The notes under the pieces are model-generated. The model did not search any database. It was not told the DNA's origin and worked only from the letters and a program-made list of their open reading frames with translations. A program made the translations under genes and the position numbers. Of a DNA stretch of 64,000 nucleotides, positions 12,615-55,897 are shown in pieces. The stretch comes from Escherichia coli (GTDB lineage Bacteria > Pseudomonadota > Gammaproteobacteria > Enterobacterales > Enterobacteriaceae), in assembly GCF_050920415.1 (NCBI RefSeq), contig NZ_CP169309.1; one strand, given 5' to 3'. Within the stretch, counting starts at the first letter, position 1. The number at the start of each line of letters is the position of its first letter.

Positions 12615-13296
12615 TTATGGATCTGTTGATTGTTTTAACTTACGTGGCGCTGGCATGGGCGGTCTTTAAAATCTTCCGTATTCCGGTGAATCAGTGGACG
12701 CTGGCGACGGCGGCGCTGGGAGGCGTTTTTCTGGTAAGCGGTTTGATTTTGTTGATGAACTACAACCACCCTTACACTTTTACCGCACAGAAAGCGGTGA
12801 TTGCTATTCCCATCACGCCACAGGTGACGGGGATCGTGACTGAAGTCACTGACAAGAATAATCAGCTTATTCAGAAGGGCGAGGTGCTTTTTAAGCTCGA
12901 CCCGGTACGTTATCAGGCGCGAGTCGACAGACTTCAGGCTGACCTGATGACGGCGACGCATAATATAAAGACGCTGCGCGCGCAGCTCACTGAAGCGCAA
13001 GCCAATACCACCCAGGTTTCAGCGGAGCGTGACCGCTTGTTTAAAAATTATCAACGTTACCTGAAAGGCAGCCAGGCGGCGGTAAATCCGTTCTCAGAAC
13101 GTGATATCGACGATGCGCGGCAGAATTTTCTCGCGCAGGATGCGCTGGTGAAAGGTTCGGTGGCGGAACAGGCGCAAATCCAGAGCCAGCTCGACTGTCA
13201 GCGCCAATGATATAAGACAGTAATTCACCATTTGGATTGTCCGCTCCACCCAACATGTTGTTTCCTTAAGGTTCCTACACCACAAAGGGAACACTC

Positions 13297-14343
13297 ATGC
13301 TGAGCAGAGAGGACTTTTACATGATAAAGCAAATGCGCCAGCAAGGTGCGTATATTGTTGATATTGCCACTCAGGTTGGTTGCTCTGAGCGGACTGTCAG
13401 ACGGTACCTGAAATACCCGGAACCTCCGGCCAGAAAAACACGCCACAAAATGGCCAAACTCAAGCCGTTCATGGACTATATCGACATGCGTCTGGCTGAG
13501 AATGTCTGGAACGGCGAGGTCATCCTGGCGGAAATCAAAGCGATGGGTTATACCGGTGGCCGTTCCATGTTGCGTTACTACATCCAGCCCAAACGTAAGA
13601 TGCGGCCATCGAAGAAAACGGTTCGCTTCGAAACTCAGCCCGGTTACCAGCTACAGCATGACTGGGGAGAAGTTGAGGCTGAGGTTGCCGGGCAACGATG
13701 CAGGGTTAACTTCGCGGTTAATACGCTGGGGTTCTCACGTCGCTTCCATGTCTTCGCGGCACCAAAGCAGGATGCTGAACATACCTATGAGTCACTGGTC
13801 CGCGCCTTTCGCTACTTCGGCGGCAGCGTGAAAACCGTGCTGGTCGATAACCAGAAAGCCGCAGTGCTGAAAAATAACAACGGGAAGGTGGTGTTCAACT
13901 CCGGGTTCCTGCTGCTGGCCGATCACTATGGCTTCCTGCCACGGGCCTGCCGTCCACGAAGGGCCAGAACCAAAGGTAAGGTGGAACGGATGGTGAAATA
14001 CCTCAAGGAAAACTTCTTCGTCCGGTACCGCCGGTTCGACAGCTTCGCCCATGTTAATCAGCTACTGGAGCAGTGGATGGCTGACGTTGCCGACAGGCGG
14101 GAACTTCGCCAGTTCAGGCAGACACCGGAACAGCGCTTCACGCAGGAACAGGTGCATCTGCAGGCGCTGCCAGGTACGGACTTCGATACCAGCTACTTCG
14201 ATATCCGTCATGTCTCCTGGGATGGCTATATCGAGGTTGGCGGGAACCGTTACAGCGTGCCGGAAAGCCTGTGTGGCCAGCCGGTATCAATACGGATCTC
14301 GCTGGATGATGAACTGCGATTTACAGTAATGAGCAACAGGTAG
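13297..14343 (+). CDS. istA: IS21-family transposase IstA, apparently frameshifted near its 3' end
   Basis: HTH N-terminus and DDE-like core. The ORF stops at 14343, but another frame continues ...[13 protein letters not shown] to a TGA at 14466-14468 that overlaps the istB ATG, the usual istA/istB junction. Confidence 0.7.
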   Translation: MLSREDFYMIKQMRQQGAYIVDIATQVGCSERTVRRYLKYPEPPARKTRHKMAKLKPFMDYIDMRLAENVWNGEVILAEIKAMGYTGGRSMLRYYIQPKRKMRPSKKTVRFETQPGYQLQHDWGEVEAEVAGQRCRVNFAVNTLGFSRRFHVFAAPKQDAEHTYESLVRAFRYFGGSVKTVLVDNQKAAVLKNNNGKVVFNSGFLLLADHYGFLPRACRPRRARTKGKVERMVKYLKENFFVRYRRFDSFAHVNQLLEQWMADVADRRELRQFRQTPEQRFTQEQVHLQALPGTDFDTSYFDIRHVSWDGYIEVGGNRYSVPESLCGQPVSIRISLDDELRFTVMSNR

Positions 14344-14455
14344 CATCGCACCGTCTCTGTTCGGCTGTATACGGCTGGCAGACCGTGCCGGAGCATCACG
14401 CCCCACTCTGGCAGCAGGTCAGTCAGGTGGAACACAGGCCGTTGAGTGCCTATGA

Positions 14456-15262
<807 letters not shown>

Positions 15263-15884
15263 TGACCAATAGCGGACATTAAAAATGGCGAAAAACGGCC
15301 AATAATCTTGGCGTTGACACGACAGTATGGTTAACGGTGAGCAGTCGCAGATTGTCAGCTTAAGGGCGCAGCTTACCGAAGCGAAATATAACCTTGAGCA
15401 GACCGTCATTCGCGCGCCGAGCAATGGCTACGTTACTCAGGTACTGATCCGCCCAGGTACATACGCAGCTGCCTTGCCGCTACGTCCGGTGATGGTTTTC
15501 ATCCCCGAGCAAAAACGGCAAATTGTCGCCCAATTTCGGCAGAACTCGCTGTTACGTCTGAAACCCGGCGATGATGCGGAAGTAGTGTTTAACGCGCTAC
15601 CTGGGCAGGTGTTCCACGGCAAACTGACTAGTATTTTACCTGTCGTGCCAGGTGGTTCGTATCAGGCGCAGGGGGTACTGCAATCATTAACCGTCGTACC
15701 CGGCACGGACGGTGTGCTGGGAACCATCGAACTGGACCCTAACGCTGATATCGATGCTTTACCCGACGGCATCTACGCCCAGGTGGCAGTTTACTCCGAC
15801 CATTTCAGCCATGTTTCGGTGATGCGGAAGGTGCTGCTAAGAATGACCAGTTGGATGCATTATCTTTATTTGGATCATTGAGGG

Positions 15885-16450
15885 GGGCGGGGGAGATTAT
15901 GGAACTTTGCTCCTTGTAAGGACTAATTATTTTTGCATATTACTTCATTGGCTGCGATGATTTTTCTTTAATATTCATTAGGTTGAGAAGTTCTTGATGA
16001 GTGTGCTCTCATTGGATTTTTTATCCGTCTTGTTCTGCCGCAGGATCAGACTATACATCGTCGAGATCGCAATGATTATGAATTGTTCCTCTGCGACGAT
16101 GCTAATCAAAAAAGTGCTGGAGTGCTTTTCCATCTATTGCGATGATGGTTTTATTATCTGAAGAATGACAGTCACACATCCAGCTAATAAAGAACTCGTG
16201 AAATTTTCCAGGACTGATACAGGACACAACTCTGGTAATGATATCGTGAATAGGAATACCATATTAAAAATCACCATATTGCTTCAACAAATCGAGATGA
16301 GTCTCACCAGAATCCTCTATATCTTCCCATCCTTCAGCTCCGGAAATGATGGCGAAAATAATCAGCACTAGGATATCTGATAATTTATACTCTACTTTCC
16401 AGACTTGTCTGTAATCGGGACAGTAGAAATATGCTCCATTAATTTTTTAA
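15885..16450 (-). pseudogene. Degenerate H-repeat (ISAs1-family) transposase remnant
   Basis: Minus-strand translation gives [11 protein letters not shown]..., then after stops and frameshifts ...AIDGKALQ...RRRGTIH...ELLNLMNIKEK, matching H-rpt transposase motifs as I recall them. Confidence 0.5.
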
Positions 16451-16915
16451 GTTCCATTTTTTCTCCTTGTTTATGTAAGGAGTGTCTGAATATATATAAG
16501 CTATGAAAACACTTATTAAATAATAAGGGATATCTTGATTATTGGACATTTAGTGCTAATTGTTTAGTGCAAAAAATCGGCGTTATATGGTCTTTACCTT
16601 TATTACCCTTGCTGTTTTCCTCCAGCCTATGAAAAGCCAGCTTCAGTAAATCGTACCGCCCGAACATTGTAAGATACAATTTACTGACAACTTAGTACAT
16701 TATTAATATCACATTTAAGCTTTTTTTTCAGATTATAAAGCCTGTCCACTTTATAATCTTTGCAATTATAAACGTATTCTTTTTTTGTTTTCATATCAAT
16801 GACACTAACCCCTCGCATGTTACTACCGTTGTCGTAATTGCTAAACACGGAGTACTTATATCCACTTTGAATAAAACTAACGCTAAAGTAATCCGTTTGA
16901 AATCTGGAGTAATGA

Positions 16916-17128
16916 TTATAAAAAATCCTGAATACATTGGTCCATCTGAAATGAATTGAAATTTATCCCATGCTGACTATTCATTTCATAAATCAACGTT
17001 TCACCAAAACTTGTTAATGACAAAGTTCCTTTGGATGTATTACATAAAAAATAATTATTTCCTGCGTTTAGAGTCCAGGGAATTCCAGATAAAAAAATAA
17101 AAATTAATGCTCTATCTATATTGCTCAT
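16916..17128 (-). CDS. Hypothetical small protein downstream of the orphan toxin fragment; possible immunity-gene remnant
   Basis: 70-aa ORF whose start overlaps the end of the orphan toxin ORF; AT-rich; no recognisable motif. Confidence 0.25.
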   Translation of the reverse strand: MSNIDRALIFIFLSGIPWTLNAGNNYFLCNTSKGTLSLTSFGETLIYEMNSQHGINFNSFQMDQCIQDFL

Positions 17129-18290
17129 AATTAGCCCTTATTCTGTCATCATATCCTCGCTGACTTTGCCCATTATAACATAGAGCAAAGTTAAGCCAAT
17201 CTTTATCTCTAATAGCACGCAATAATACAGGATTAGATTTTATGAAGTTAATGAATGCCGCCAGATGGTTTTTCTCTGACTCTGAAATCGATATTATAAA
17301 CTCTTCGGGCGAAGAGTACCCGGCAGCTTGGTAATTTGAAGCCAATATCTGAAATTTACCCCACGATGCCGATTTAAGCGCAGCTTGCTTATCTAAAACA
17401 TATGCACGAAGTAATTTTTGATATTGCTCCGATCGTGTTCCATAACCGCCAGAACGGCTGTTGGAAATATCAGGTTGAGAATCATACACACCATTCGTAT
17501 ATCGATGGAAATGATGTCTTTCAAAAAGAATTGAGGGGACGTAATCATCTTCTTGTTCAAATTTAAAATAGCTACCGGAACTACCAGTTTCAGTTTTTGC
17601 AACAGCTTTAATTGCAGCCACTTCGCATTGTAGTGTCCTTGCAGCATTTTCATAGTCTGCATCATCAATGGTATCTCCGTTATAAAATCGTAAAAATTCC
17701 AATGGAATAAGTTCATTATTTACAGGAGTTTTTGGGTAATTGCTATTATTAATAGCATTCAAAAACACAACCGGATGAAAATGCCACACAGCATCATCAC
17801 TATTAAACGGAGACACCCCGCTCATCCACTCCAGATCCAGCTGCCACTTTTCACAGTATGCCACTTCCTCGGGTCCAGATCTTTATAAAACCCTTCCCAG
17901 CGTCCCGTCGAGCGACCGCCGTACCACTCGCTGTGGTGTCTGACTGTCAGACGATTCACCACATTTCTCACCAGTGGTTCACGCACGGTCAGCGCCTGTC
18001 TGATCTCTTCCTCCGTCACTTTTCCATCACCGTCCTGATCCATACCCGCCATCAGCTCACGATAAAAGGGCGGTACCTGCTCATACAGCCACTCATCTCC
18101 CTGTTCTGCGGCACGGCTTATTGAGTCAAACGCTTCCGGCACCCATCCTTCGTACGGGCTGTACGTCATGTCACCGCTGCTGTTCTCCTCCAGCGGCTGA
18201 AAACCCAGCTTCAGTAAATCATACTGTCCGGCCTCTTCAACATCCTTCTGTGGCAGCCAGCCGGTTCCGGTGATATTAAGCCGCCTCTGG
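17112..18290 (-). pseudogene. Orphan 3' fragment of a VgrG-linked effector paralogue: EF-hand linker plus an alternative C-terminal muramidase-like domain, frameshifted near 17860
   Basis: ORFs 17822-18391 and 17112-17864 are collinear with residues about 383-556 of the 829-aa effector at 19290-21779 (NITGTGWLPQKDVEEAGQ...DQDGDGKVTEEE...AYCEKWQLDLEWMSGVSPFNSDDAVWHFHPVVFL), then diverge into a different C-terminal domain (...FERHHFHRYT...SWGKFQILASNY...). Confidence 0.55.
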
Positions 18291-18572
18291 TTTCCTTTTA
18301 ATAAAGCACTCGTGAAATTTTGCAGGACTGATACAGGATACAACTCTGGCAATGGTATCGTGAACAGGAATACCATTATCAAAATCACCATATTGCTTCA
18401 AAAAATCGAGATGTGTTTCCCCAAAATCCTCTATATCTTCCCAGCCTTCTGCACCCGAAATAACGGCACAAATAGTCAACAGTAGAATATCCGATAATTT
18501 ATGTTGCACTTTCCAGGCTTGTCTGTAATCGGGGATAATAGAAATATGTCCCATCAATTTTTTAAGTTCCAT
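18276..18572 (-). pseudogene. H-repeat (ISAs1-family) transposase N-terminal fragment, about 90 codons, fused to the orphan toxin fragment
   Basis: [60 protein letters not shown]... matches the N-terminus of H-rpt transposases; a second copy with its upstream sequence is repeated at about 16150-16600. Confidence 0.6.
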
Positions 18573-18873
18573 TTTGTTCTCCTTAATTATGTAAGGAGTA
18601 TTTGATCATGTATAAGCAATAAAAAACAGCTTTAGGTAATGAGGAATATCTCAATTTTCAAACATAAAATGCGAATTGTCTAGTACAAAAAAGCAGCGTT
18701 ACGTGATCTTTCCCTGCCTGCCTGTACGATATCCCTCAAAAATAATTTTCCAGTCAGTTATTCATGTCTAACTTAAAATCATAAAACATTTAAATTAATA
18801 ATAAACAAATTCAACCTAGTCGCATTATTATTTTAATAACACAGCATCGATTTCATAAAAAACTGCACAATGG

Positions 18874-19284
18874 TCATCCAGTCCATTTGCAATCAGTACC
18901 ATCATCATTATATGCCTCAATATTTTCTTCAAACTCAGTTGTTTTCCCACTTATTGATTTATAATGAAACAAATTAAATCTTGCACCTTGTGTGGAAACA
19001 ACATACAACCCATTAATTTTTCCATTTACAACCTCGCTCCATGCATAAGAAAATTCAGAAGGCCTGTCATCGAAAGTCACTTCTAATTTATTTATAAACG
19101 CAAGAGGTATAAATTTTGAGGATTTCTCATAAATCACATAACCTAAAAAAATATCGCCAGACGATATTTCAACAAACTTTAAATTTGTTTTCCCAGCGCT
19201 AAAACAGCCTACCGTTGTTTGTTGTTTAGCCAATAAACAACAAGGCACCAAACAAAACAGTAAAACCAATAAGTTAACTTTCAT
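18874..19284 (-). CDS. Small secreted protein, putative immunity protein for the effector at 19290-21779
   Basis: N-terminal Sec-type signal peptide MKVNLLVLLFCLVPCCLLA; GGAG ribosome-binding site; starts 5 bp after the effector stop; AT-rich. Confidence 0.5.
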   Translation of the reverse strand: MKVNLLVLLFCLVPCCLLAKQQTTVGCFSAGKTNLKFVEISSGDIFLGYVIYEKSSKFIPLAFINKLEVTFDDRPSEFSYAWSEVVNGKINGLYVVSTQGARFNLFHYKSISGKTTEFEENIEAYNDDGTDCKWTG

Positions 19285-19289
19285 ATCAA

Positions 19290-21779
19290 TTACTCCAGTT
19301 CAGTTATTCGTCTCTCTACAAATGTGGATATATTCCTTTTTTCTATTCCATATACTTTTCTATCACCCTCACGCCCTTCCTGAGGAAACGGATGCAGGTC
19401 AATTAATTCTTTCGCCCTTCTATAACCTTTTAATGCTTCTTCGTTACTCTTGATCGTCCCTCTTCGGGAGCTATCAGGATCATGCCATATCCCCCATCCC
19501 AAAGCATATACTTTATTATCATATACGTCACTATCATCAAACAAGAAATCGTCGTTCATTGCTTTCTGATTTAAATGCTCGGCAGCAAGTGAGGTAACCA
19601 ATTTATTAAATATCGACAACCGTTCATCATAATGATTATACCCTCCATTAATCACTGCTGTAATTTTATTAAAATCATCATTTTTAGCATCTTCATTTAT
19701 TCTTTTGAATATATTGAAATACCAAAACGCAGATAATACGCAATGTGGGGAGGATATAAGTTTATCTCTTGCGGAATCTGAAGATGTTACGTCCTCATTG
19801 ATATATTCCCCATAGGCGGTGTAATTACTTTCCCCTGTAACTTGTATTAAGCCTCGGCCATACCACGGACTATATGAAGCTGATTCACCATTAATTTCTT
19901 TGGTATATCTAAAATAACCGCTCTCGTGAATAATTTGAGCAAGAAAATGGGCTTTTTCTCTACAAGTGGTCATACCAAACCGAATAAACCCTGCATTTAT
20001 ATCGTAGAGGTACCTTTTGAGAAGACCTTCACTTACTGCAGGAGCAACTTTTTTTAATTCATCTAATGTTATATCTCTGTTGCAAGCACACACAGATTTG
20101 GAATTAATAGCGTCCAAAAACACAACCGGATGAAAATGCCACACAGCATCATCACTATTAAACGGAGATACCCCGCTCATCCACTCCAGATCCAGCTGCC
20201 ACTTCTCACAGTATGCCACTTCCTCTGTGTCCAGATCTTTATAAAATCCTTCCCACCGCCCTGTCGAGCGCCCTCCGTACCATTCGCTGTGGTGTTTAAC
20301 TATCAGATGATTCACCACATTTCTCACCAGTGGTTCACGCACGGTCAGCGCCTGTCTGATCTCTTCCTCCGTCACTTTTCCATCACCGTCCTGATCCATA
20401 CCCGCCATCAGCTCACGATAAAAGGGCGGTACCTGCTCATACAGCCACTCATCTCCCTGTTCTGCGGCACGGCTTATTGAGTCAAACGCTTCCGGCACCC
20501 ATCCTTCGTACGGGCTGTACGTCATGTCACCGCTGCTGTTCTCCTCCAGCGGTTGAAAACCCAGCTTCAGTAAATCATACTGTCCGGCCTCTTCAACATC
20601 CTTTTGTGGCAGCCAGCCGGTTCCGGTGATATTAAACCACCACTGCTGCGATTCATCCGTGATCGGTGTCGTGGCTTCCCGCGGAAGAACGCGCTGAGCA
20701 CCCAGTGTGGCTGCGGTTGCGGTAAATACCTCCTGTCCCGGAACGGCCTGCCGGGTGTATAAAATTATCCCTTTTGGTGCCAGAACAGTCCGTTTTTCTC
20801 CCTTAACGCCTGCCGGGTTGGATAAGAACTTTGGCATATTCGGGTCTGTACTCAGAACCTCCAGATGGACGAACCACTCGCGCTCAATCTCACCGCTTCC
20901 CTCGCCAGGATAATCCTCGCATCCCATAAATCCGACCGGTGTTCCGGCACTGACTTTCCACTCTTCCGTTTCGTCGACCGTCTGTACCGAGTCAAAAATG
21001 CCTTTTGCCTTCGCCTTCTGCATCCACTCAGGCATCAGCATCTGTATTTCGCCATCTGACTCCATCAGATCCGGATCCAGGGTCACCCAGTACTGCTCAT
21101 TCCCCGGTTTATTGCCTTCCAGCAGGCGAACCAGTCCGAATGTCGTCAGGACCGGCTGGCCGTTATTGGTCACGTAAAAACGTCCGGTCCGGGATGACAC
21201 AAACCGATCTCCCGCATTAAGTGTCCTGTTTCCGCTGATTTTCGGGGGTATCCAGTACGTGGCATGATCTCCGCTTTCCTGCCCCTCGGGAAGGCCGTTC
21301 TTTCCCGGGATGTATCGGTGCAGCAATATGCCACCATGCCCGGTTTTAACTTTATAGCAGGGGGAGCCGGGATAATCGTTCACCGGGGCCAGATGCATAT
21401 AGAGACAGTAAAATTCCAGCCAGCTTTCTTTTTTTTGCGGGTCTGGCTGGCACTGCGATTTCACCAGAACAAATGTGCTGCTGTAACGGAGTTGCTGCCC
21501 TTTGTAGGTGCCTTTCAGGTAATCATTATTTATCCGGTACGCCGCAATGGTGCCATCGGCCATAAACTGAAGAGGAACCGGTTCTCCGGTAGCGGCGGTA
21601 TCCGGTTTCAGGGCTGATAACGGATTAGACACGTCACTGATATGTATCCCGCCGTGCCACAGCCCGTTTCCACCCAGCAGCCAGGTTCCGTGCGCTTCTT
21701 TGTCAATAAGCCGCATTATCTCATCCAGCGAGCGAAACTCTTTGCCTTCTTTATCCCTGATGGGATGGCTGATTTTCAT
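19290..21779 (-). CDS. VgrG-linked multidomain putative T6SS effector (829 aa): N-terminal M23-like region, EF-hand loop, C-terminal GH19-like glycoside hydrolase
   Basis: Starts 9 bp after the vgrG stop. WHGGIHI, LYMHL and GTPVGFMG...FVHLEV resemble M23 (lysostaphin/LytM) motifs; DQDGDGKVTEEE is a canonical 12-residue EF-hand loop; AHFLAQIIHESG...YGRGLIQVTGESNY resembles GH19 signatures. No signal peptide. Confidence 0.6.
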   Translation of the reverse strand: MKISHPIRDKEGKEFRSLDEIMRLIDKEAHGTWLLGGNGLWHGGIHISDVSNPLSALKPDTAATGEPVPLQFMADGTIAAYRINNDYLKGTYKGQQLRYSSTFVLVKSQCQPDPQKKESWLEFYCLYMHLAPVNDYPGSPCYKVKTGHGGILLHRYIPGKNGLPEGQESGDHATYWIPPKISGNRTLNAGDRFVSSRTGRFYVTNNGQPVLTTFGLVRLLEGNKPGNEQYWVTLDPDLMESDGEIQMLMPEWMQKAKAKGIFDSVQTVDETEEWKVSAGTPVGFMGCEDYPGEGSGEIEREWFVHLEVLSTDPNMPKFLSNPAGVKGEKRTVLAPKGIILYTRQAVPGQEVFTATAATLGAQRVLPREATTPITDESQQWWFNITGTGWLPQKDVEEAGQYDLLKLGFQPLEENSSGDMTYSPYEGWVPEAFDSISRAAEQGDEWLYEQVPPFYRELMAGMDQDGDGKVTEEEIRQALTVREPLVRNVVNHLIVKHHSEWYGGRSTGRWEGFYKDLDTEEVAYCEKWQLDLEWMSGVSPFNSDDAVWHFHPVVFLDAINSKSVCACNRDITLDELKKVAPAVSEGLLKRYLYDINAGFIRFGMTTCREKAHFLAQIIHESGYFRYTKEINGESASYSPWYGRGLIQVTGESNYTAYGEYINEDVTSSDSARDKLISSPHCVLSAFWYFNIFKRINEDAKNDDFNKITAVINGGYNHYDERLSIFNKLVTSLAAEHLNQKAMNDDFLFDDSDVYDNKVYALGWGIWHDPDSSRRGTIKSNEEALKGYRRAKELIDLHPFPQEGREGDRKVYGIEKRNISTFVERRITELE

Positions 21780-21788
21780 GTTCAGTCC

Positions 21789-23990
21789 TTATCGTGAGAA
21801 TCTTCCCGGCCGTTGTGGCGGTACCTTATCCTGCTGGGGAGGATCAAAGGCTTCCTGTACATTTTTCCGTGGTGGCTCCGCCCCTTCAGTTCCAGGTCCG
21901 CCATTGTCATAATCTGCCAGCGCTTTCAAAACCGCCGGTCGTAGTGTCGGCACCGGCGTTCCCGGACTACCGCCGCTATTGAGATTGATTTTCGGCCCGA
22001 CGATGTCCACGCCCCCTGAATGGATGACCACAAACGAACCACCCACCTTCAGGGTGATTTTACCGCCACTCTCCAGTACGATTTCATCCCGGACCTTCAT
22101 TCCCAGCGCACCGGTAATCTTCCTCGCCAGGTCGCCCTTCACCTCCAGACTGTGCGTTCCCTCCACCAGACTGATATGGTTCCCCGTCGTCTTATGCTCC
22201 TGCTTCCCTTCCACCGTCACTTTACGGTCGTTTCTGACATACAGGCCGTCATCGTGACTCACGCTCACCGTCCGGTCATTCGTCACCTTCAGCGTCTGGT
22301 CATTACGTACCGTTATGCGCCGGTCGTTCGCCACCGTGATACTCTGGTCGTGGCCCCCTTCTTTTCTGGTGCCGACCTCAACCGTCTGCCCCTTCACCAC
22401 CCTTATCTTCTGGTCGTTACCGATGGTCTCCGTATGGTCATGCTTCACGTCCGTCGTCCGGTCGTTAAGCACCTCCGTGTCCATGTTCTTCTGCGCGTGG
22501 ATATACACCTGCTCACTGTCCGTCGCATCCTCGAAACGCAGTTCATTAAAGCCGCTTCCTTTATAGGTCTTCGAGCGGATGGTCATCTGCGTCCGCGTGC
22601 CCGGTAAATCCCCCGGTGAACGGTTATCTTCATGGTAGGTCCGCCCCGTCACAATGGGCTGGTCCGGGTCGCCGTTCAGAAAGTCCACTATCACTTCCTG
22701 ACCCACACGCGGTATCGCCAGATTGCCGAACCCCGGTCCCGCCCATGCCTGCGACACCCGTATCCAGCATGAACTCTCCTCCGTCATCCCGTGATAACGG
22801 TCCCAGTGAAACTTCACCCGTACCCGGCCATGCTCGTCGCAGAATATCTCCTCGCCCTTCGGCCCGGTCACGATGGCACTCTGCGGGCCGTCCACCTTCG
22901 GCTTCGGCAGGGGCTGTGAGCGCCAGGTCCGGTCTGCCGGGATGACCGTGATATGGTTACTCAGTGTCGTTCCCCTCCCCTGGCTCCCGTGCAGCGCCTG
23001 CGGCTGGCTCCCCGTCAGCGTGCTGCTCACCACCTGCCACTCACGGTTCGGGTTCGCTCCCTGTACCGGATGCCCCGTCAGGGTGAACCGCCGTCCCGGC
23101 CACAGCGCCGGGGAGTTACTGATACCTGTGGCGGTTTCAGCACTGTTACGCAGCCCTTCCAGCCGGTAGCGGGTAAAGTCCTGACCATGCTGCTCGTCCT
23201 TGTAGCGCCCCGGCCAGTCCAGGATTTTGTACTGCTTCAGTTGCTCGTTGAGGTTTTCAGCATCCTCAATGTAAATACCCGGCCAGTCCGGCACCTTAAA
23301 CGTGTGGTCTTTTGAACGCACCTGCGAGGGCCGCACCTGCGCCTGGTAGCGGAACAGGCTGATGCACGCCGTCGTCACCTCACGGGTGTTCGGGTTAAAC
23401 GGTATCTCCCCGTACACCGGCAGGCCCGCCACATCATCGCACAGCGTGAGCGTCTGCTCCGGGCTGTCGTCAGCGTATCTGTCATAAAAGAAGATGCCTT
23501 CCTCCGCCCACAGCCGGGTCAGAAACGCCAGGTCGCTTTCACCGTACTGGACGCAGAACTCCCGTGCCGGGTGGCTCTCATAAAAGCGCGGCGTCCACTG
23601 CGTCACTCCGTCCTCGTTTAACAGCGTGGCGGAGATGGCCTGAATGTCCTGCTGCTGGAAGATTCGGTAGTTCTGCCGCAGCCCGCTGCGCCACAGGGGC
23701 GGGCGTATCTGAAGGTGGTACTGCATCTGCCAGCCGTTGTGCTCCTTCATGCCTAACCCCGACACCACACCGCTCACATAACGCAGCGCCGTGCCACCCT
23801 GCCAGATGGTCAGCACGGCCCCCTTCTCCAGCAGCTTCTCCGCCGTCTGGCGGAACGAGTCGCTGGCAACGTCCACATCCAGGACGAACGGCGATGAGTA
23901 TGCCTGCGTGAGGCGGAAATCCACCACCGCGAACGTCTCCGGCACCAGTCCGTCCACCGTCAGCGTAAAACGCAGCCCTTTTAATGACAT
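21789..23990 (-). CDS. vgrG: Type VI secretion spike protein VgrG (733 aa)
   Basis: MSLKGLRFTLTVDGL... N-terminus, gp27/gp5-like core with beta-helix repeats (VRNDQTLKVTNDRTVSVSHDD...), GGAGG-type RBS. Confidence 0.9.
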   Translation of the reverse strand: MSLKGLRFTLTVDGLVPETFAVVDFRLTQAYSSPFVLDVDVASDSFRQTAEKLLEKGAVLTIWQGGTALRYVSGVVSGLGMKEHNGWQMQYHLQIRPPLWRSGLRQNYRIFQQQDIQAISATLLNEDGVTQWTPRFYESHPAREFCVQYGESDLAFLTRLWAEEGIFFYDRYADDSPEQTLTLCDDVAGLPVYGEIPFNPNTREVTTACISLFRYQAQVRPSQVRSKDHTFKVPDWPGIYIEDAENLNEQLKQYKILDWPGRYKDEQHGQDFTRYRLEGLRNSAETATGISNSPALWPGRRFTLTGHPVQGANPNREWQVVSSTLTGSQPQALHGSQGRGTTLSNHITVIPADRTWRSQPLPKPKVDGPQSAIVTGPKGEEIFCDEHGRVRVKFHWDRYHGMTEESSCWIRVSQAWAGPGFGNLAIPRVGQEVIVDFLNGDPDQPIVTGRTYHEDNRSPGDLPGTRTQMTIRSKTYKGSGFNELRFEDATDSEQVYIHAQKNMDTEVLNDRTTDVKHDHTETIGNDQKIRVVKGQTVEVGTRKEGGHDQSITVANDRRITVRNDQTLKVTNDRTVSVSHDDGLYVRNDRKVTVEGKQEHKTTGNHISLVEGTHSLEVKGDLARKITGALGMKVRDEIVLESGGKITLKVGGSFVVIHSGGVDIVGPKINLNSGGSPGTPVPTLRPAVLKALADYDNGGPGTEGAEPPRKNVQEAFDPPQQDKVPPQRPGRFSR

Positions 23991-24145
23991 GATGACCTCC
24001 CTGGTATTGCTACAGGAAAAAGTAATTAACCGATATTGACCGTACCTTCTGATATTCTCTCACTGATTCATTATCTGTATTTCCCATGAACATTCTCATT
24101 TCAACAGGAAAACCAACGAATTGTAGCCATGACAATAAGTTAACA

Positions 24146-25060
24146 TTAATAATTCCTCAACGAATAAGGAGGAGATGCCCTGTCCCCATCAATAGTAACC
24201 ACGACCTGATTTGATCTTATTTTGAATATATTATCATTACCGCCATGATAGCCAAATCGTGCTAAAAAATCCTGAAATAGACCAGGTCCTCTATAAGGTC
24301 CACAGATTCTCCAAACCCGCCACTCCTCTATGCCATACGTTATTTTATCTATAGGATTAGTACACTCTCTTTCTGCCCGCCAGTTCATAATAGAAAGAAA
24401 ATACTCATATATATATTGTTCTGCAAACCACTCTTGATTAACTATTGTAAATTCTACCGTCCCTATATTATAACGATGAATGCCCGGTAAAAAGGCATAA
24501 TAATCGTTCAATGTGACATCAAAGGATAGCTCTTTCCCTGGTAATATCTCGCGCCAAACAGATTTACTTTTCCATTCACCAAAGCTACATTTTGTTTTTT
24601 TTAAAAAATCCAACTGAATGTTATCCATTATCGGTATAAACACACCACTACACAAGGAAGAGTAAGGCCCGCCGTTAACGTCAAGAGGAAGAGTTAGTCG
24701 ATGAACAAAATAAGATCCCTGGCTTTTATTCGATAAAACCACTGCAGCTGCTACAATATTTTCTTTCTGATGCACGGAAAGATGAAGATATATTTTATTT
24801 TTATCCTGATTATACTGACTCTCATTTTTACTGATAGTATAATATTGAAAAACAGCATAGGCTGAAAGATCATCATAATAATCATAATAATTAAGCCTTG
24901 TCGGTTCTACACGAGGATAGACACCAAGTTTTTCCATTACTCCATTCCAATGTAACTTCCCATATCTGTAATGAACCGCATAATCGCCAGAGATATCATA
25001 AGCAAATATTGGATGCACCCAAGAAAAAAAAGCAATAAAAACAATCCATCTAGCAAGCAT
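24146..25060 (-). CDS. Secreted protein with Sec signal peptide, putative immunity protein for the HExxH effector
   Basis: Start placed at the ATG at 25058-25060 (strong GGGGGAG RBS), giving MLARWIVFIAFFSWVHPIFA as signal peptide; 25 bp after the effector stop. Confidence 0.5.
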   Translation of the reverse strand: MLARWIVFIAFFSWVHPIFAYDISGDYAVHYRYGKLHWNGVMEKLGVYPRVEPTRLNYYDYYDDLSAYAVFQYYTISKNESQYNQDKNKIYLHLSVHQKENIVAAAVVLSNKSQGSYFVHRLTLPLDVNGGPYSSLCSGVFIPIMDNIQLDFLKKTKCSFGEWKSKSVWREILPGKELSFDVTLNDYYAFLPGIHRYNIGTVEFTIVNQEWFAEQYIYEYFLSIMNWRAERECTNPIDKITYGIEEWRVWRICGPYRGPGLFQDFLARFGYHGGNDNIFKIRSNQVVVTIDGDRASPPYSLRNY

Positions 25061-25084
25061 ATACTCCCCCGTCAAATAAAAGCA

Positions 25085-25930
25085 TCAATATGGTACAGGA
25101 ATCTCGAAATAACGTTCGATATTATATGCATTCTGAAACAGTTCTGATTTTTTATCATTTTTTAATTTAGTGGCATGAGCAATATATTCGTCACCTGTAC
25201 TATACTCTATATCTACCGGCATATCTTCCGTCCACATGCCTCCAAACTTAAGTGAATCCCCGTACCTTATAAAGTGAGATAGTTCATGGCAGAGTGTCGA
25301 TGCCTTAGAGTTTTCCCCAGTGAATGGCCTATCTATAAATCTTTGTCCTATAGTTATACTTACCAAACTTTTAAAGCTTCCAGATTTTACACCCAAAATC
25401 TGATCGTAAGTTACATTGGCAGCATAAGCGTCATTATCTGTACAATTCACAAAGTTACCAATTTTGGGCCTGATTACGTCTTTGTCAACATATTCATTAC
25501 CCCCTTTGTCATTAAGAACAAGATTACAATTGGCATCACGTTTGAGGAAATGGTCATGAACGGTAACGTCTACACAATCACCTTCCACAGATAATTCCCC
25601 ACATATCTCATACAGGCGAGTAACGCCATTTCTCATATAATCCCTTGCCTTTATATTCTCTGTAAACAGAGTATTACGCCCCCCGAAAGGGAACTTTAAT
25701 TTAATATAAGTATTTCCATCAATGCCAAATATATTTATAAATTCCTGATTTTGTTCCGCCCCCCATTTATCACCAAGATCTTCTACTCTTTTTTTCAATA
25801 CAGCCATCTGCGCCTTCAGAGCCTCTCTCATCATTATTTTAAAATCATTAGTAATTTTCCCCTCCTTTAAAACTACACACTGTTCACCACTCTGGCTTTT
25901 TCCGCTCGTACTACCCTTTTCATCTCCCAT
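25085..25930 (-). CDS. VgrG-linked putative zinc-metallopeptidase-like effector (281 aa, HExxH)
   Basis: CHELSHF (HExxH) at residues 215-219, with a possible downstream Asp ligand in STGDEY; hydrophilic N-terminus with no signal peptide; AAGGAGGA RBS; 81 bp after the vgrG stop. Confidence 0.5.
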   Translation of the reverse strand: MGDEKGSTSGKSQSGEQCVVLKEGKITNDFKIMMREALKAQMAVLKKRVEDLGDKWGAEQNQEFINIFGIDGNTYIKLKFPFGGRNTLFTENIKARDYMRNGVTRLYEICGELSVEGDCVDVTVHDHFLKRDANCNLVLNDKGGNEYVDKDVIRPKIGNFVNCTDNDAYAANVTYDQILGVKSGSFKSLVSITIGQRFIDRPFTGENSKASTLCHELSHFIRYGDSLKFGGMWTEDMPVDIEYSTGDEYIAHATKLKNDKKSELFQNAYNIERYFEIPVPY

Positions 25931-26011
25931 ATAAATCCTCCTTGGTATATATTTTCACTACAAACCCTGTTCCATTTATGCAAAAACACGCCAATTACAG
26001 GCGGTCACTCT

Positions 26012-28324
26012 CTATTCATTAATCCCTCCCCATATCATATCGATATTCAAATGCAACAATCTGACGTCTATTGTCTGCTCGCTGTCAGTGGTGAATATTT
26101 CCGTATACCCATCCTTATCCGTTTCTCCGCGGGTCTGCGTGCCGTCCTCAAAGAAGGCAATGTAGCGTGTCTCTGAATACGGTATCCCGTCATCGTCTGT
26201 AAAATGGAACTGGAGAGTATATTTTTCAGGGTTCTCATCATCATTCTCATCCTCCAGCGCCTCCAGTACAACCGGTTGCAGCGTCGATACTGGCGTCCCC
26301 GGACCTCCCCCACCATTCAGGTTTATCTTCGGCCCCACTATATCCACGCCGCCAGAGTGTATCACCACGAACGAACCGCCCGCTTTCAGGCTTATCTGGC
26401 TGCTGCTCTCCAGCACGATATCCCCGTCCACCTTTATCCCCAGCGCGCCACTCACCTTCTCCGCCAGGTCACCCTTCACCTCCAGGCTGTGTTTCCCCTC
26501 CACCAGGCTGATATGGTTTCCCGTCGTCTTATGCTCCTGCTTCCCTTCCACCGTCACTTTACGGTCGTTTCTGACATACAGGCCGTCATCGTGACTCACG
26601 CTCACCGTCCGGTCATTCGTCACCTTCAGCGTCTGGTCATTACGTACCGTTATGCGCCGGTCGTTCGCCACCGTGATACTCTGGTCGTGACCCCCTTCTT
26701 TTCTGGTGCCGACCTCAACCGTCTGCCCCTTCACCACCCTTATCTTCTGGTCGTTACCGATGGTCTCCGTATGGTCATGCTTCACGTCCGTCGTCCGGTC
26801 GTTAAGCACCTCCGTGTCCATGTTCTTCTGCGCGTGGATATACACCTGCTCACTGTCCGTCGCATCCTCGAAACGCAGTTCATTAAAGCCGCTTCCTTTA
26901 TAGGTCTTCGAGCGGATGGTCATCTGCGTCCGCGTGCCCGGTAAATCCCCCGGTGAACGGTTATCTTCATGGTAGGTCCGCCCCGTCACAATGGGCTGGT
27001 CCGGGTCGCCGTTCAGAAAGTCCACTATCACTTCCTGACCCACACGCGGTATCGCCAGATTGCCGAACCCCGGTCCCGCCCATGCCTGCGACACCCGTAT
27101 CCAGCATGAACTCTCCTCCGTCATCCCGTGATAACGGTCCCAGTGAAACTTCACCCGTACCCGGCCATGCTCGTCGCAGAATATCTCCTCACCCTTCGGC
27201 CCGGTCACGATGGCACTCTGCGGGCCGTCCACCTTCGGCTTCGGCAGCGGCGCGTGACGCCACGTCCTGTCTGCCGGTATCACCTCAAACTGATTGCTCA
27301 GTGTCGTCCCTTCACCGTGACTCCCGTGCAGCGCCTGCGGCTGTTCTCCCCGCAGTGTGCTTCCCACAACCTGCCATTCCCGGTTCAGCGTCGCTGACGG
27401 ATGGCCCGTCAGCCGGAACCGCGTTCCCGGCCACAGCCGCGCCGTGTTACACACCCCGCTCGCCGTCTCCGCCCCGTTCCGCCACCCTTCCGTCTGGTAA
27501 CGCGCAAAATCCTGGCCATGCTGCTCATCCTTGAAACGCCCCGGATAATCAAATATCTCGTACTGCGTTCCCTGTCCGTTCAGGCTCTCCCCGTCATGGC
27601 TGTAGTACCCCGGCCACCCCGGCGTTTTGAACGTATAATCCTGCGTCTCCACCGACGCCACGCTTATCTGCGCACGGTAACGGAAGTCGCGGATGTACTC
27701 TGTCGTGCCTCCGGTCGTGGTATTCGGGTTAAACGCCAGCGCCCCCATTCCCGTCAGCCCCGCCACGTCATCACACACCGCCAGCTTCTGTTCCGGCCCG
27801 TCCTGACTGCAGCGTTCATAAAAGAAGATACCTTCCTCCGCCCACAGCCGGGTCAGGAATGTCAGGTCGCTCTCCCCGTACTGCACGCAGAACTCCCGCG
27901 CCGGGTGCGCCTCATAGAACAGCGGCATCCACGCCGTCACCCCGTTCTCTTCAAGAAGCTGCGCTGATATCGTCTGAATGTCCTGCTGCTGGAAGATACG
28001 GAAGTTCTGCCGTAACCCTGCCCGCCACAGCGGCGGGCTGATGCTCAGGGAATAACGCATCTGCCAGTCGTTGTTCTCACCGAGCTGCACCTCTGTCACG
28101 ATACCGCTGACGTAACGCTGTGCAGTGTCGCCCTGCCAGACCGTCAGCACCGCGCTTTTCTCCAGAAAATCTTCTGCCGTCAGGTCAGACAGTCCGCTGG
28201 CGATATCCACATCCAGGATGAACGGTGTGCAGTGGTGCTGGTACAGACGGAAGCTCACCACCGCCGTCGCCATCTCCACAATACCGTCCACCGACAGCGT
28301 GAAACGTAATCCTTCTGCTGCCAT
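26012..28324 (-). CDS. vgrG: Type VI secretion spike protein VgrG with a divergent acidic C-terminal extension (about 770 aa)
   Basis: Start set at MAAEGLRFTLSVDG (ATG at 28322-28324); core nearly identical to the vgrG at 21789-23990; C-terminal 100 aa (...EDENDDENPEKYTLQFHFTDDDGIPYSE...) is unique. Confidence 0.9.
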   Translation of the reverse strand: MAAEGLRFTLSVDGIVEMATAVVSFRLYQHHCTPFILDVDIASGLSDLTAEDFLEKSAVLTVWQGDTAQRYVSGIVTEVQLGENNDWQMRYSLSISPPLWRAGLRQNFRIFQQQDIQTISAQLLEENGVTAWMPLFYEAHPAREFCVQYGESDLTFLTRLWAEEGIFFYERCSQDGPEQKLAVCDDVAGLTGMGALAFNPNTTTGGTTEYIRDFRYRAQISVASVETQDYTFKTPGWPGYYSHDGESLNGQGTQYEIFDYPGRFKDEQHGQDFARYQTEGWRNGAETASGVCNTARLWPGTRFRLTGHPSATLNREWQVVGSTLRGEQPQALHGSHGEGTTLSNQFEVIPADRTWRHAPLPKPKVDGPQSAIVTGPKGEEIFCDEHGRVRVKFHWDRYHGMTEESSCWIRVSQAWAGPGFGNLAIPRVGQEVIVDFLNGDPDQPIVTGRTYHEDNRSPGDLPGTRTQMTIRSKTYKGSGFNELRFEDATDSEQVYIHAQKNMDTEVLNDRTTDVKHDHTETIGNDQKIRVVKGQTVEVGTRKEGGHDQSITVANDRRITVRNDQTLKVTNDRTVSVSHDDGLYVRNDRKVTVEGKQEHKTTGNHISLVEGKHSLEVKGDLAEKVSGALGIKVDGDIVLESSSQISLKAGGSFVVIHSGGVDIVGPKINLNGGGGPGTPVSTLQPVVLEALEDENDDENPEKYTLQFHFTDDDGIPYSETRYIAFFEDGTQTRGETDKDGYTEIFTTDSEQTIDVRLLHLNIDMIWGGINE

Positions 28325-28539
28325 ATAAACCCCATAGCTACCGCACTCATAGTGCAAACCATACGGGCTTATAAGAAAGGCTTAAGTGAGATATCTGCCA
28401 GATAGCAACTATTAGGAAAATATTTATATCACCATGATAAATATGTGATTTATTGGGAGATAACAAACCATCAACATTTTCTGCCCTTTTTCCCATCACC
28501 AGGCCATACTGATATTTTTCCTCGCACAAAGGACTCGGC

Positions 28540-35835: not shown

Positions 35836-36021
35836 GTGAAAAGTGCAGACGTGATCGCCATCCTGAAGCAGCATGGCTGGGAACATATTCGAACCCGTGG
35901 TAGTCATCATCAGTTCCGCCACCCTGTCCATCCGGGTCTGGTGACGGTTCCGCACCCTAAAAAAGATATTAAGCCCGGTACGCTGGCGCAAATTGGGCGT
36001 CAGGCTGGTTTAACATTTTAA
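35836..36021 (+). CDS. hicA: HicA-family toxin (YcfA-like mRNA interferase), 61 aa, GTG start
   Basis: MKSADVIAILKQHGWEHIRTRGSHHQFRHPVHPGLVTVPHPKKDIKPGTLAQIGRQAGL matches the HicA pattern (GSHhqf...vtvPhH.kdlk.gtl..I..qaGl). Confidence 0.7.
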   Translation: MKSADVIAILKQHGWEHIRTRGSHHQFRHPVHPGLVTVPHPKKDIKPGTLAQIGRQAGLTF

Positions 36022-36037
36022 AATTTCAGGAGGCAAT

Positions 36038-36448
36038 ATGTTTTATCCCGCCTATATCCACAGTGATCCTGACGGCAGCGCCAGCGGTTTTTTCCCTGAT
36101 GTTCCAGGCTGTTATTTTGCTGGTGATACGCTGGACAACGCTTTCCAGGATGCGCGAAGTGCACTGGTCGCGCACTTCGAAACCTTATGCGAGATGAATG
36201 AAGAGTTGCCGCTTCCAGGCTCTGTGGAAACACATCTGGTCCAGCGTGCGCAGGACTTTATTGGCGGGCAATGGTTGCTGGTGGATATCAATATGAATCA
36301 GTTCGAAGGTCGGGCTGAACGTATCAATATTACGATGCCGAAAAGATTACTGAACAAGATTGATACCTACGTGCGCAATAACCCAGACTACGCCAACAGA
36401 AGTGCGTTTCTGGCGGAAGCTGCCCGGCGTGTATTGCCGGGCGTTTAA
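36038..36448 (+). CDS. hicB: HicB-family antitoxin with C-terminal ribbon-helix-helix domain (136 aa)
   Basis: Starts 17 bp after hicA; N-terminal HicB fold; C-terminal INITMPKRLLNKIDTYVRNNPDYANRSAFLAEAARRVL has RHH character. Confidence 0.65.
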   Translation: MFYPAYIHSDPDGSASGFFPDVPGCYFAGDTLDNAFQDARSALVAHFETLCEMNEELPLPGSVETHLVQRAQDFIGGQWLLVDINMNQFEGRAERINITMPKRLLNKIDTYVRNNPDYANRSAFLAEAARRVLPGV

Positions 36449-40289: not shown

Positions 40290-40370
40290 TTCAGGCTTGA
40301 TAAGACGCGTTAAGCGTCGCATCAGGCAATGTGCACCCTACGTTGGATGCGGCGCGAGCGCCTTATCCAA
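40290..40370. repeat. REP/BIME elements
   Basis: gcttgataagacgcgttaagcgtcgcatcaggc and ggatgcggcgcgagcgccttatcc palindromes. Confidence 0.6.
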
Positions 40371-40371
40371 C

Positions 40372-48526: not shown

Positions 48527-49513
48527 TTATTGCACCTCATCCACGGCTTTCAGCAGTTCATCGCCCTGCGGAACATCTTTTACAAACATGTCGCGGACCT
48601 GAGTACCCAGTACGTCGCTAAAGGCTTTGCGATCAAGTTCGGTGATGACTTCCACGCCAGCGTCTTTCATGCCGTCGATGATTTTTTGCTGATTTTCGGC
48701 GACCAATTTGCGCTGGTAATTACCCGCTTCTTGCGCAGATGAAATTAGCGCTTGCTGGAACTCCGGGCTTAAGCCATCAAACTTCGCTTTGTTGATCACC
48801 ACCAGAAGTGGGGAATAGGCATGGTGCGTCAGAGAAAGGTACTTCTGCACTTCATAAAATTTGGCTGACCAGACGACGTTGATCGGGTGTTCCTAAGCGT
48901 CGATAGTGCGCGTTTCCAGCCCGGTATAGACTTCGGCAAATGGCATCGGAATCGGGTTAGCGCCAAAGACTTTGAATGCGGCGATATTCATCGGGCTATT
49001 GTTGGTGCGTATTTTCAGCCCTTTCAGGTCGGCAGGTGTTTTAACTGGCTGGCGTGAGTTGGTGACATCGCGCCAGCCGTTTTCCCAGTAGGCCAGTACT
49101 TTCAGTCCCTTACCTTCAAGGGAGGCCTTCAGTTCATCGCCGACTTTGCCGTCGAGTGTTTTATGCGCGTGGGCGGTATCGCGGAACAGGAAAGGAACAT
49201 CAAGCAGGTTCATCACAGGTGATAATCCGGCAAAGTTATTCGAGCCAGACATCTCCATATCAATAGTGCCGCCACGCACGCCGCTGATCATCGCTTGTGC
49301 GTTGCCGAGAGTACTGTCCGGGAACAGTTTTAATTTCAGCTCGCCTTTGGTTCTCTCCTGTAATAATTCATTAAATTTTTTCGCTGCAATATGTTGTGAG
49401 TCGGTTTGTGAGGTTTCATAACCGAAACGTAATGATTGTGCCGCCAGCGAAGACGTACTGAATGCAGCGAGGCCAGCAATGAATAATGCGTAGGTTACAG
49501 AGCGTAATTTCAT
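48527..49513 (-). pseudogene. yiaO: TRAP-transporter solute-binding protein YiaO with an in-frame amber stop
   Basis: The 987-bp frame (328 codons, the length I recall for K-12 YiaO) is intact except for TAG at 48893-48895 (minus strand), giving ...TRTIDA*EHPINVVW; the codon replaces the Gln of the conserved TRAP-SBP D-x-Q-E-x-P motif. Confidence 0.75.

Positions 49514-54604: not shown

Positions 54605-55897
<1,293 letters not shown>

Follow-up and report, generated by a model that had tools for sequence, protein, structure and literature searches.

A probable auxiliary vgrG island of the type VI secretion system at the rhsA position of an Escherichia coli chromosome

What takes the place of rhsA between yibF and yibH in a 64,000-nucleotide stretch of Escherichia coli DNA (hereafter the window), and what might its products do? 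The window comes from the chromosome of strain MFDS1022581 (NZ_CP169399.1), to which a 13.2-kb query around the island in question is 100% identical; subtracting 129,337 from a position in that record gives the window position. A preliminary description, made from the sequence alone, had proposed that the slot holds two vgrG genes with effector and immunity candidates, as well as a degraded orphan toxin module, all dependent on a type VI secretion system (T6SS) encoded elsewhere. The analysis presented here established which genes the locus contains, their homologies and active-site motifs, its rarity, and the presence of a core cluster with an intact annotation; the island is probably an auxiliary (orphan) vgrG island of the T6SS. 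The layout of vgrG islands and both effector families have already been described, and both effector-immunity pairs are new alleles.

The order of genes at this slot in K-12 is yibF-rhsA-yibA-yibJ-yibG-...-yibU-yibH. In the window, the island is flanked by yibF on one side and, on the other, by a yibH split by an insertion sequence (IS) of the IS21 family. According to a local blastn comparison, K-12 homology ends at window position 16176 (K-12 3,769,945), inside the yibU/ISAs1 remnant, and resumes at 28356 (K-12 3,762,139), 44 bp upstream of the K-12 rhsA start; therefore, the variable segment comprises positions 16177-28355. The K-12 gene order and these breakpoints confirm the rhsA position given in the preliminary description. 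As it had also held, the RefSeq annotation of the 64-kb window contains no hcp, PAAR, tss core or Rhs gene, and no island protein matches the Rhs, YD-repeat or PAAR models.

The island genes run in one direction and are separated by 5-155 bp, an operon-like arrangement. Starting from yibF, their order on the minus strand is vgrG-A, eff1, imm1, vgrG-B, eff2, imm2, an ISAs1 fragment, the orphan open reading frames (ORFs), a 70-amino-acid ORF, an ISAs1 remnant and the split yibH, and on this order the RefSeq annotation and an independent ORF list concur. Both vgrG genes lie where they were first reported, each followed by an effector candidate without a signal peptide and then by a gene with a Sec-type N-terminus. 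The features of the island are listed below, with the basis of each in brackets.

16177..28355, minus strand: variable island of 12.2 kb, replacing K-12 rhsA-yibA-yibJ-yibG-yibS-yibW-yibV
26012..28324, minus strand: vgrG-A, 770-amino-acid T6SS spike (TIGR03361, Pfam)
26015..26224, minus strand: VgrG-A C-terminal tail, about residues 701-770, candidate adaptor for M35-type cargo
25085..25930, minus strand: eff1, 281-amino-acid M35/aspzincin-like zinc metallopeptidase, predicted effector without signal peptide (motifs, profile, Foldseek)
24146..25060, minus strand: imm1, 304-amino-acid exported candidate cognate immunity protein to eff1 (Sec-type N-terminus, PAR homology)
21789..23990, minus strand: vgrG-B, 733-amino-acid T6SS spike with a Pro-rich tail (TIGR03361)
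19290..21779, minus strand: eff2, 829-amino-acid predicted peptidoglycan hydrolase of TseP type without signal peptide (fold, EF-hand, PDB matches)
20094..21779, minus strand: eff2 N-terminal carrier domain, residues 1-562 (M23/LytM-like fold, SH3b-like modules)
20361-20396, minus strand: eff2 EF-hand loop, residues 462-473 (PF00036)
19290..20093, minus strand: eff2 C-terminal predicted toxin domain, residues 563-829 (GH19-type lysozyme/endolysin fold, guanine-cytosine (GC) fraction 0.368)
18874..19284, minus strand: imm2, 136-amino-acid exported candidate immunity protein to the eff2 C-domain (signal-peptide-like N-terminus)
18300..18572, minus strand: ISAs1 (H-repeat) transposase fragment, 5' boundary of the orphan (partial ISAs1 family transposase in RefSeq)
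17112..18280, minus strand: orphan toxin module, a 5'-truncated eff2 copy with a PF11860 N-acetylmuramidase (DNA alignment, tblastn, Pfam)
16916..17128, minus strand: orphan immunity gene, cut to 70 amino acids (149 amino acids at the same place in strain RMDEC465, locus L002)
15961..16457, minus strand: distal ISAs1 remnant (RefSeq annotation, K-12 blastn)

The GC fraction is 0.58-0.60 in the vgrG genes and 0.53-0.57 in yibF and selAB, against 0.374 in eff1, 0.358 in imm1 and 0.326 in imm2, while eff2 is a mosaic in which codons 1-562 have 0.528 and codons 563-829 have 0.368. Hence, the low GC content ascribed earlier to all cargo genes holds for eff1, imm1, imm2 and the C-terminal toxin domain of eff2, and fails for the 562 N-terminal codons of the latter. 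The intergenic region upstream of vgrG-A is common with that of K-12 rhsA to within 32 bp of the vgrG-A start, and this shared region suggests vgrG-A may reuse the resident promoter of the rhsA slot.

Both VgrG proteins score far above the cut-offs of the family models: 591 bits (vgrG-A) and 589 bits (vgrG-B) for TIGR03361, with a cut-off of 186, and 431 and 413 bits for TIGR01646, with a cut-off of 122. The Pfam domains of vgrG-A are those of gp27/gp5 (Phage_GPD, Phage_base_V and Gp5_trimer_C), and in the PDB both proteins match Pseudomonas aeruginosa VgrG1, with E of about 1e-90.

A machine on which these spikes could be used exists in the same genome. The core cluster is found beside yafV, at 4.105-4.151 Mb of NZ_CP169399.1 and about 4 Mb from the island, and contains hcp, tssA, B, C, E, F, G, H, J, K, L (icmH/DotU) and M, none of them flagged as a pseudogene. 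It also contains tagH, vasI, vasL, two PAAR genes and three vgrG genes, and its cargo types are Tae4, M23 and Tle1. All thirteen core T6SS genes and PAAR are thus present in the genome without pseudogene flags, so that the search for core genes in the rest of the genome, proposed along with the preliminary description, had a positive outcome. Across its full 770 residues, VgrG-A has 95% identity to the VgrG next to hcp in this main cluster, and VgrG-B is 94% identical over residues 1-692 to the main-cluster VgrG_2, the tails beyond being unrelated. Given the presence of the core cluster and this degree of identity, the island spikes are clearly compatible with the yafV machine, which supports the proposed dependence of the cassettes on a T6SS encoded elsewhere.

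The tail of VgrG-A provides a further link between spike and cargo. Its identity is 91% to the tail of the main-cluster VgrG, 85% to that of strain A30 and 60-64% to both VgrG tails of E. coli PAR. The cores of the PAR VgrGs are only about 25% identical to VgrG-B, the sole island VgrG compared with them; therefore, the tail appears to track the cargo rather than the machine. An M35-like gene is found downstream of all five VgrGs (5/5) that bear a VgrG-A-type tail, across two T6SS types. These observations support a role of the VgrG-A tail as a cargo-specific adaptor. An equivalent role of the VgrG-B tail for eff2 was also considered and found no support, as the VgrG that precedes an eff2 relative in Klebsiella has 25% identity and no tail in common.

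The first effector candidate, eff1, has the active-site residues of a zinc metallopeptidase. In an alignment of 14 sequences, H215-E-L-S-H219, D236 and Y269-N-x-E-x-Y-F are invariant, as are the motifs STLCHExSH and AYNxExYF among the relatives, and where these relatives have GGMGTDD (the GG(M)GTDD motif), eff1 has GGMWTED. This motif set is the aspzincin pattern, in which HExxH is joined by a downstream Asp as the predicted third zinc ligand. The eff1-family profile was compared with the PDB and matched, over the active site, the peptidyl-Lys metalloendopeptidase 1g12 (E=9e-5) and AsaP1 2x3a (E=3.5e-3), both of family M35. An AlphaFold2 model of eff1 presents a predicted local distance difference test score of 84.5 and a predicted template modelling (TM) score of 0.82, and at E<=1.4e-3 Foldseek retrieves only AsaP1 and GfMEP with it, with a TM score of up to 0.79 on the target. 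We call eff1 M35-like because no family model matches it, and the M35 name comes from the PGAP annotation of its relatives.

The nearest characterized pair is found in E. coli PAR. Over its full length, eff1 is 47% identical (278 residues, E=6e-81) to the product of PAR positions 7630-8418 of locus L010, and imm1 is 45% identical over 289 residues (E=1e-85) to the product of the 308-amino-acid gene that follows the PAR M35 gene. In a 2023 study, M35^PAR (AKO63_2955) was reported to be toxic in E. coli, to be followed by an immunity gene, and to bind its VgrG via a DUF2345-containing carrier (PMC10673891). The mapping of the PAR RefSeq genes to the AKO63_2955/2956 tags was inferred from gene order. 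More distant pairs, about 32% (eff1) and 30% (imm1) identical, lie behind VgrGs in two main clusters, that of strain A30 and that of the window's own strain. The N-terminus of imm1 is of Sec type, as judged by eye, and reads MLARWIVFIAFFSWVHPIFA, followed by YD. As a separate observation, the metV-side T6SS cluster of E. coli PAR (L010, NZ_CP012379.1 2965001-3015000) presents, at 770-9429, two successive cassettes of VgrG, M35-like effector and downstream gene.

Another HExxH enzyme considered was the C-terminal peptidase of P. aeruginosa VgrG2b, which is delivered by a T6SS, acts in the periplasm and is neutralized by the signal-peptide-bearing immunity protein PA0261, encoded by a small ORF (PMC6899460). 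Its structure, 6H56, is absent both from the results of the profile search (E<=10) and from the 50 best Foldseek matches, so eff1 was rejected as a relative. The VgrG2b C-terminal domain and PA0261 are likely a functional analogy for eff1, with the differences that eff1 is a separate cargo and not fused to a VgrG, and that imm1 has 304 amino acids versus the small ORF of PA0261.

The second candidate, eff2, is composed of two parts. Its 562 N-terminal residues define a family with 274 matches in a word-indexed search and 693 representatives at 50% identity, found in Salmonella, Citrobacter, Enterobacter, Klebsiella, Cronobacter, Pantoea, Rahnella, Photorhabdus, Serratia, Pseudomonas and Aeromonas. 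In this N-domain the putative ligands H42xxxH46 and H305xE307 are invariant, and H129 is present in at least 90% of the sequences. An M23-like (3SLU-like) structure is seen there by fold alone, in a model that is unreliable around residues 1-69, and the eff2-family profile gave no N-domain match against PDB sequences. An EF-hand follows at residues 455-479 (PF00036, E=4.8e-4), and the ...VWHFHPVVFL junction lies just past this region.

Beyond the junction, the C-domain matches the PWe2 endolysin (1.7e-13), the SPN1S endolysin 4ok7 (5.6e-10) and TseP-C 8xcl (5.8e-8) in the PDB. PF00182 (GH19) matches eff2 weakly (44 residues, E=0.084), and NCBIfam has no family that matches it. The glutamates E619 and E628 form a predicted dyad with a spacing of nine residues, the same as TseP E654/E663 (PMC11893102). 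The family's C-domains are interchangeable, and the identifiable ones are all peptidoglycan hydrolases: the tails comprise GH19, the PF11860 muramidase, GH108, pesticin-like, M23 plus GH24, and CHAP. A gap of 5 bp separates the end of eff2 from imm2. The latter is 100% conserved in strain RMDEC465 and encodes an N-terminus of Sec type, again judged by eye, which reads MKVNLLVLLFCLVPCCLLA, followed by KQ.

TseP of Aeromonas dhakensis is a verified antibacterial T6SS effector, with amidase activity reported for TseP-N, and presents the same disparity in GC content between its N- and C-domains (PMC11893102). SARI_02625 of Salmonella arizonae SPI-21 is likewise a verified antibacterial T6SS effector (PMC12992299). 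The Aeromonas protein P0235 (844 amino acids) was taken as the TseP orthologue because its C-domain matches TseP-C 8XCL with E=6e-79 over the same residue range. Identity between eff2 and the Aeromonas proteins is 25-35%, and eff2 is collinear with P0235 from residue 1 to the end, keeping the motifs WHGGIH and VHLE, the EF-hand and the WHF-P junction. In Aeromonas molluscorum, the TseP-family gene has the C-terminus of a VgrG upstream of it and a small ORF downstream. No similarity was found between imm2 and the Aeromonas downstream gene, as expected given the different toxin allele. Judged by sequence and modelled fold, eff2 is a member of the TseP family of chimeric T6SS peptidoglycan hydrolases.

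These results also answer two points raised with the preliminary description. Family and structure searches on the cargo, which it had called for, return an aspzincin-like eff1 (profile and Foldseek) and an eff2 with an EF-hand and matches to GH19-type endolysins and TseP-C. The cargo genes, which it had allowed might prove to be housekeeping genes, instead resemble the toxic pair of PAR, in the case of eff1 and imm1, and the TseP family, in the case of eff2. In Klebsiella variicola CP153315.1 (L014, 2634-11186), two eff2-family effectors were observed in tandem behind a VgrG of DUF2345 type; one has a pesticin-like tail and the other an unassigned one, and a separate downstream gene accompanies each. 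That arrangement points to modular diversity of the tails.

The degraded orphan toxin module is real, and its composition relates it directly to eff2. Its two ORFs, one with the EF-hand (17822-18391) and one with the N-acetylmuramidase (17112-17864; PF11860, E=6.5e-46), are split by a 1-bp deletion near 17872. In a DNA alignment, about 533 bp of the orphan are roughly 97% identical to eff2 codons about 382-562, with the homology starting directly after the ISAs1 fragment. This similarity stops abruptly past the codons of ...VWHFHPVVFL, where eff2 continues into the GH19-type domain and the orphan into the PF11860 muramidase. The 70-amino-acid immunity stub completes the module. NCBIfam returned no match for any of the orphan proteins.

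An intact, 749-amino-acid form of the muramidase protein (P0014) is 98% identical in the shared part. Together with a downstream gene of 145 amino acids, it adjoins yibH-yibI-mtlA at 70-2740 of L011, a Logan contig (DRR244934) from another E. coli. Given P0014 occupies the same slot there, the slot would once have held, or elsewhere still holds, the muramidase allele. By sequence, the orphan is the apparent displaced muramidase tail of the eff2 family, following the pattern of Rhs and CdiA in a VgrG cargo effector.

The population analysis covered 5,426 complete E. coli genomes. Three of them match at least 80% of the 13.2-kb island-spanning query, and the number is again three for the vgrG-A/yibF junction, for the eff2/imm2 DNA and for the window's eff1/imm1 allele, with distant M35-like relatives present in about 280 genomes. 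The three carriers come from Korean food, a Tibetan pig and a Thai patient, and across these strains the island is kept at 93-99% amino-acid identity. In comparison with RMDEC465, the ratio of nonsynonymous to synonymous substitution rates (dN/dS) is 0.15-0.55, with few substitutions. RMDEC465 has an extra module with ISAs1, a vgrG fragment and an S-type pyocin with its immunity gene, and N96 has an IS66 insertion.

For the expression, loading, secretion, toxicity, substrates and immunity of the island products, we infer the following course. VgrG-A and VgrG-B would assemble on the yafV machine and be capped by a PAAR protein encoded there, VgrG-A carrying eff1 through its C-terminal tail of about 70 residues and VgrG-B carrying eff2. 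Sheath contraction would then deliver eff1 and eff2 to the periplasm of a neighbouring Gram-negative cell. There, eff1 would cleave a peptide or protein target of the envelope, and the GH19-type domain of eff2 (Glu619/Glu628) would cut glycan strands, while its M23-like N-domain might additionally cleave the MurNAc-L-Ala amide bond. Sister cells would be shielded by imm1 and imm2, both exported by the Sec route. The orphan would be the former C-terminal muramidase with its immunity gene, which stayed in place after an ISAs1-associated event had brought in the GH19 version.

Several results weigh against an auxiliary island that is working today. At the level of the island, the intergenic region between yibF and vgrG-A has no promoter-like site in a consensus scan, and the scan of the whole island lies near the shuffled background (29 promoter-like sites versus 19 +/- 4.8, and 12 terminator-like sites versus 10 +/- 3.2). 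No Pfam or NCBIfam match was found for imm1 or imm2, nor for eff1, for which the Pfam search extended to E<=10. The docking of eff2 on VgrG-B is unsupported because the Klebsiella VgrG is 25% identical and lacks the tail. The M35-like cassette of the main cluster has its immunity gene, of about 300 amino acids, split by IS2 (L005, NZ_CP169399.1 4100001-4150000, at 24590-27747), and the cargo region there contains a group II intron reverse transcriptase gene (ltrA) and an IS21 that truncates one vgrG (L005, 7611-8933 and 15171-17135). These insertions suggest the T6SS may be silent or under relaxed selection. The M35-like effector beside the hcp-adjacent VgrG is intact, with its HEVSH and GTDD motifs, and together with the IS2-split immunity gene this implies a risk of self-intoxication if the system is active.

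Hence, the island could be a silent or decaying remnant, with intact genes that are undelivered, a T6SS that is inactive or eroding, and persistence explained by recent acquisition. An intact effector beside a broken immunity gene, self-harming if the system fired, fits this account, as do the IS21 and intron in the main-cluster cargo, the lack of a promoter-like site in the consensus scan, and the scars within the island itself (IS remnants, the frameshifted orphan and its truncated immunity gene). Yet the reading frames of the six principal island genes and of the thirteen core genes are uninterrupted and unflagged, the catalytic motifs are preserved, and strains from Korea, Thailand and a Tibetan pig retain 93-99% amino-acid identity with dN/dS below 1. 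We therefore regard a silent remnant as unlikely, though it deserves more weight than the other alternatives. Considerably less probable is a defensive island, in which imm1 and imm2, and formerly the orphan's immunity gene, would be under selection against armed neighbours and the toxins would be incidental. Orphan immunity genes kept within T6SS clusters are known (PMC6730261), and imm2 is fully conserved between strains. However, each immunity gene stands beside its cognate effector, which is intact, and has a VgrG dedicated to the pair, and the sole unpaired one is the decayed gene, reduced to 70 of 149 amino acids. Moreover, the eff1 and eff2 alleles occur in 3/5,426 E. coli, so E. coli attackers would be rare, while relatives of eff2 are common in other Enterobacteriaceae.

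A phage or tailocin remnant, with a tail spike and endolysins in place of T6SS parts, was rejected as having next to no probability. The homology of VgrG to phage gp27/gp5 and the phage endolysins that are the best PDB matches of the eff2 C-domain would speak for it. Nevertheless, the RefSeq annotation contains no other phage genes, the VgrGs score threefold above the T6SS-specific TIGR03361 cut-off and are 94-95% identical to core-cluster VgrGs, and the effectors are paired with exported immunity proteins, unlike endolysins. An auxiliary vgrG island served by the yafV machine is thus the reading retained.

Of the known systems, the closest in layout are auxiliary T6SS clusters in general and the VT modules (vgrG islands) of pathogenic E. 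coli, the latter described by Ma et al. (2018) as summarised in PMC6730261. According to that summary, the VT modules too encode vgrG, a cargo effector and immunity outside the main cluster, with the core machine elsewhere, and their cargo includes a peptidoglycan amidase, lysozyme-like proteins, a peptidase and 'two-domain' toxins. The island in the window differs in having two cassettes and an orphan in the yibF-yibH slot, and in being present in 3/5,426 genomes. Cassette 1 resembles M35^PAR/AKO63_2956 in size (281/304 amino acids, versus 262/308 in PAR) and in the position of the pair directly downstream of a VgrG. The T6SS subtype is another, however, and the PAR carrier is split into a VgrG and a DUF2345 protein, whereas that of the island is a single 770-amino-acid protein.

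Cassette 2 shares with TseP and SARI_02625 the location downstream of vgrG, the M23-like N-domain, the EF-hand, the lysozyme-type C-domain, the small immunity gene that follows, and an N-domain more GC-rich than the C-domain. It differs from TseP in that the C-domain is another GH19-type allele, which matches 8xcl with E=5.8e-8 and is closer to phage endolysins, and from both in that the eff2 family has a resident orphan C-terminal module in the window. As in Rhs and CdiA systems, the N-terminal body is conserved and the C-terminal toxin variable, the two meeting at a sharply conserved junction (...VWHFHPVVFL in eff2), immunity is encoded downstream, and displaced 5'-truncated orphan modules and ISAs1/H-repeat remnants are found at the distal end. 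Unlike those systems, the island has no YD/Rhs repeats or PAAR, eff2 is a VgrG cargo, and the tails detected are peptidoglycan hydrolases rather than nucleases.

Outside the island, one insertion belongs to its flanking context:

13199..15319, plus strand: IS21-family (ISEc62) insertion splitting yibH, flanking and outside the T6SS island (annotation, K-12 breakpoints)

In this ISEc62 copy istA is intact and istB is frameshifted, and the adjoining positions 15320-16176, which comprise the yibH 3' end and yibU, are common with K-12. Elsewhere in the window, a 1,658-amino-acid YadA-like trimeric autotransporter adhesin is encoded at 560-5536 (minus strand), with an adjacent DUF3251 gene, between lldP and yibL. 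A HicA/HicB toxin-antitoxin pair lies at about 35836-36448 (plus strand), downstream of aldB, and yiaO (about 48527-49513) has an internal stop codon. A copy of IS621, with an IS110 family transposase, lies at about 54715-55695 (minus strand), between ysaA and avtA. The sole Rfam match of the window at the gathering threshold is naRNA4 (RF02564, 67.8 bits), at 40294-40372 (minus strand); no match was found inside the island.

The island leaves the current understanding of T6SS biology unchanged. It indicates the classical rhsA locus of E. coli can host a non-Rhs T6SS arsenal, and it introduces into E. coli a predicted dual peptidoglycan hydrolase of TseP type, which is common in Klebsiella, Enterobacter, Citrobacter and Salmonella and nearly absent from E. 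coli (3/5,426 complete genomes). No description of orphan modules or of the VWHFHPVVFL junction was found in the literature read on the TseP family. A broader proposal, to which we lend slightly less than even credence, is that the TseP-type VgrG cargo effectors of Enterobacteriaceae are polymorphic toxins whose C-terminal modules are swapped at ...VWHFHPVVFL, leaving orphans, and that the yibF-yibH slot, given the upstream intergenic region it has in common with K-12 and its distal H-repeat remnant, may be a general landing pad at which Rhs and non-Rhs T6SS toxins replace one another. In this respect, the L011 contig and the window represent a natural before-and-after pair for the displacement of a toxin tail in a cargo effector. 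The island also adds two new alleles of enzymes predicted to target the envelope, along with their candidate inhibitors, to a class of proteins explored as antimicrobial leads.

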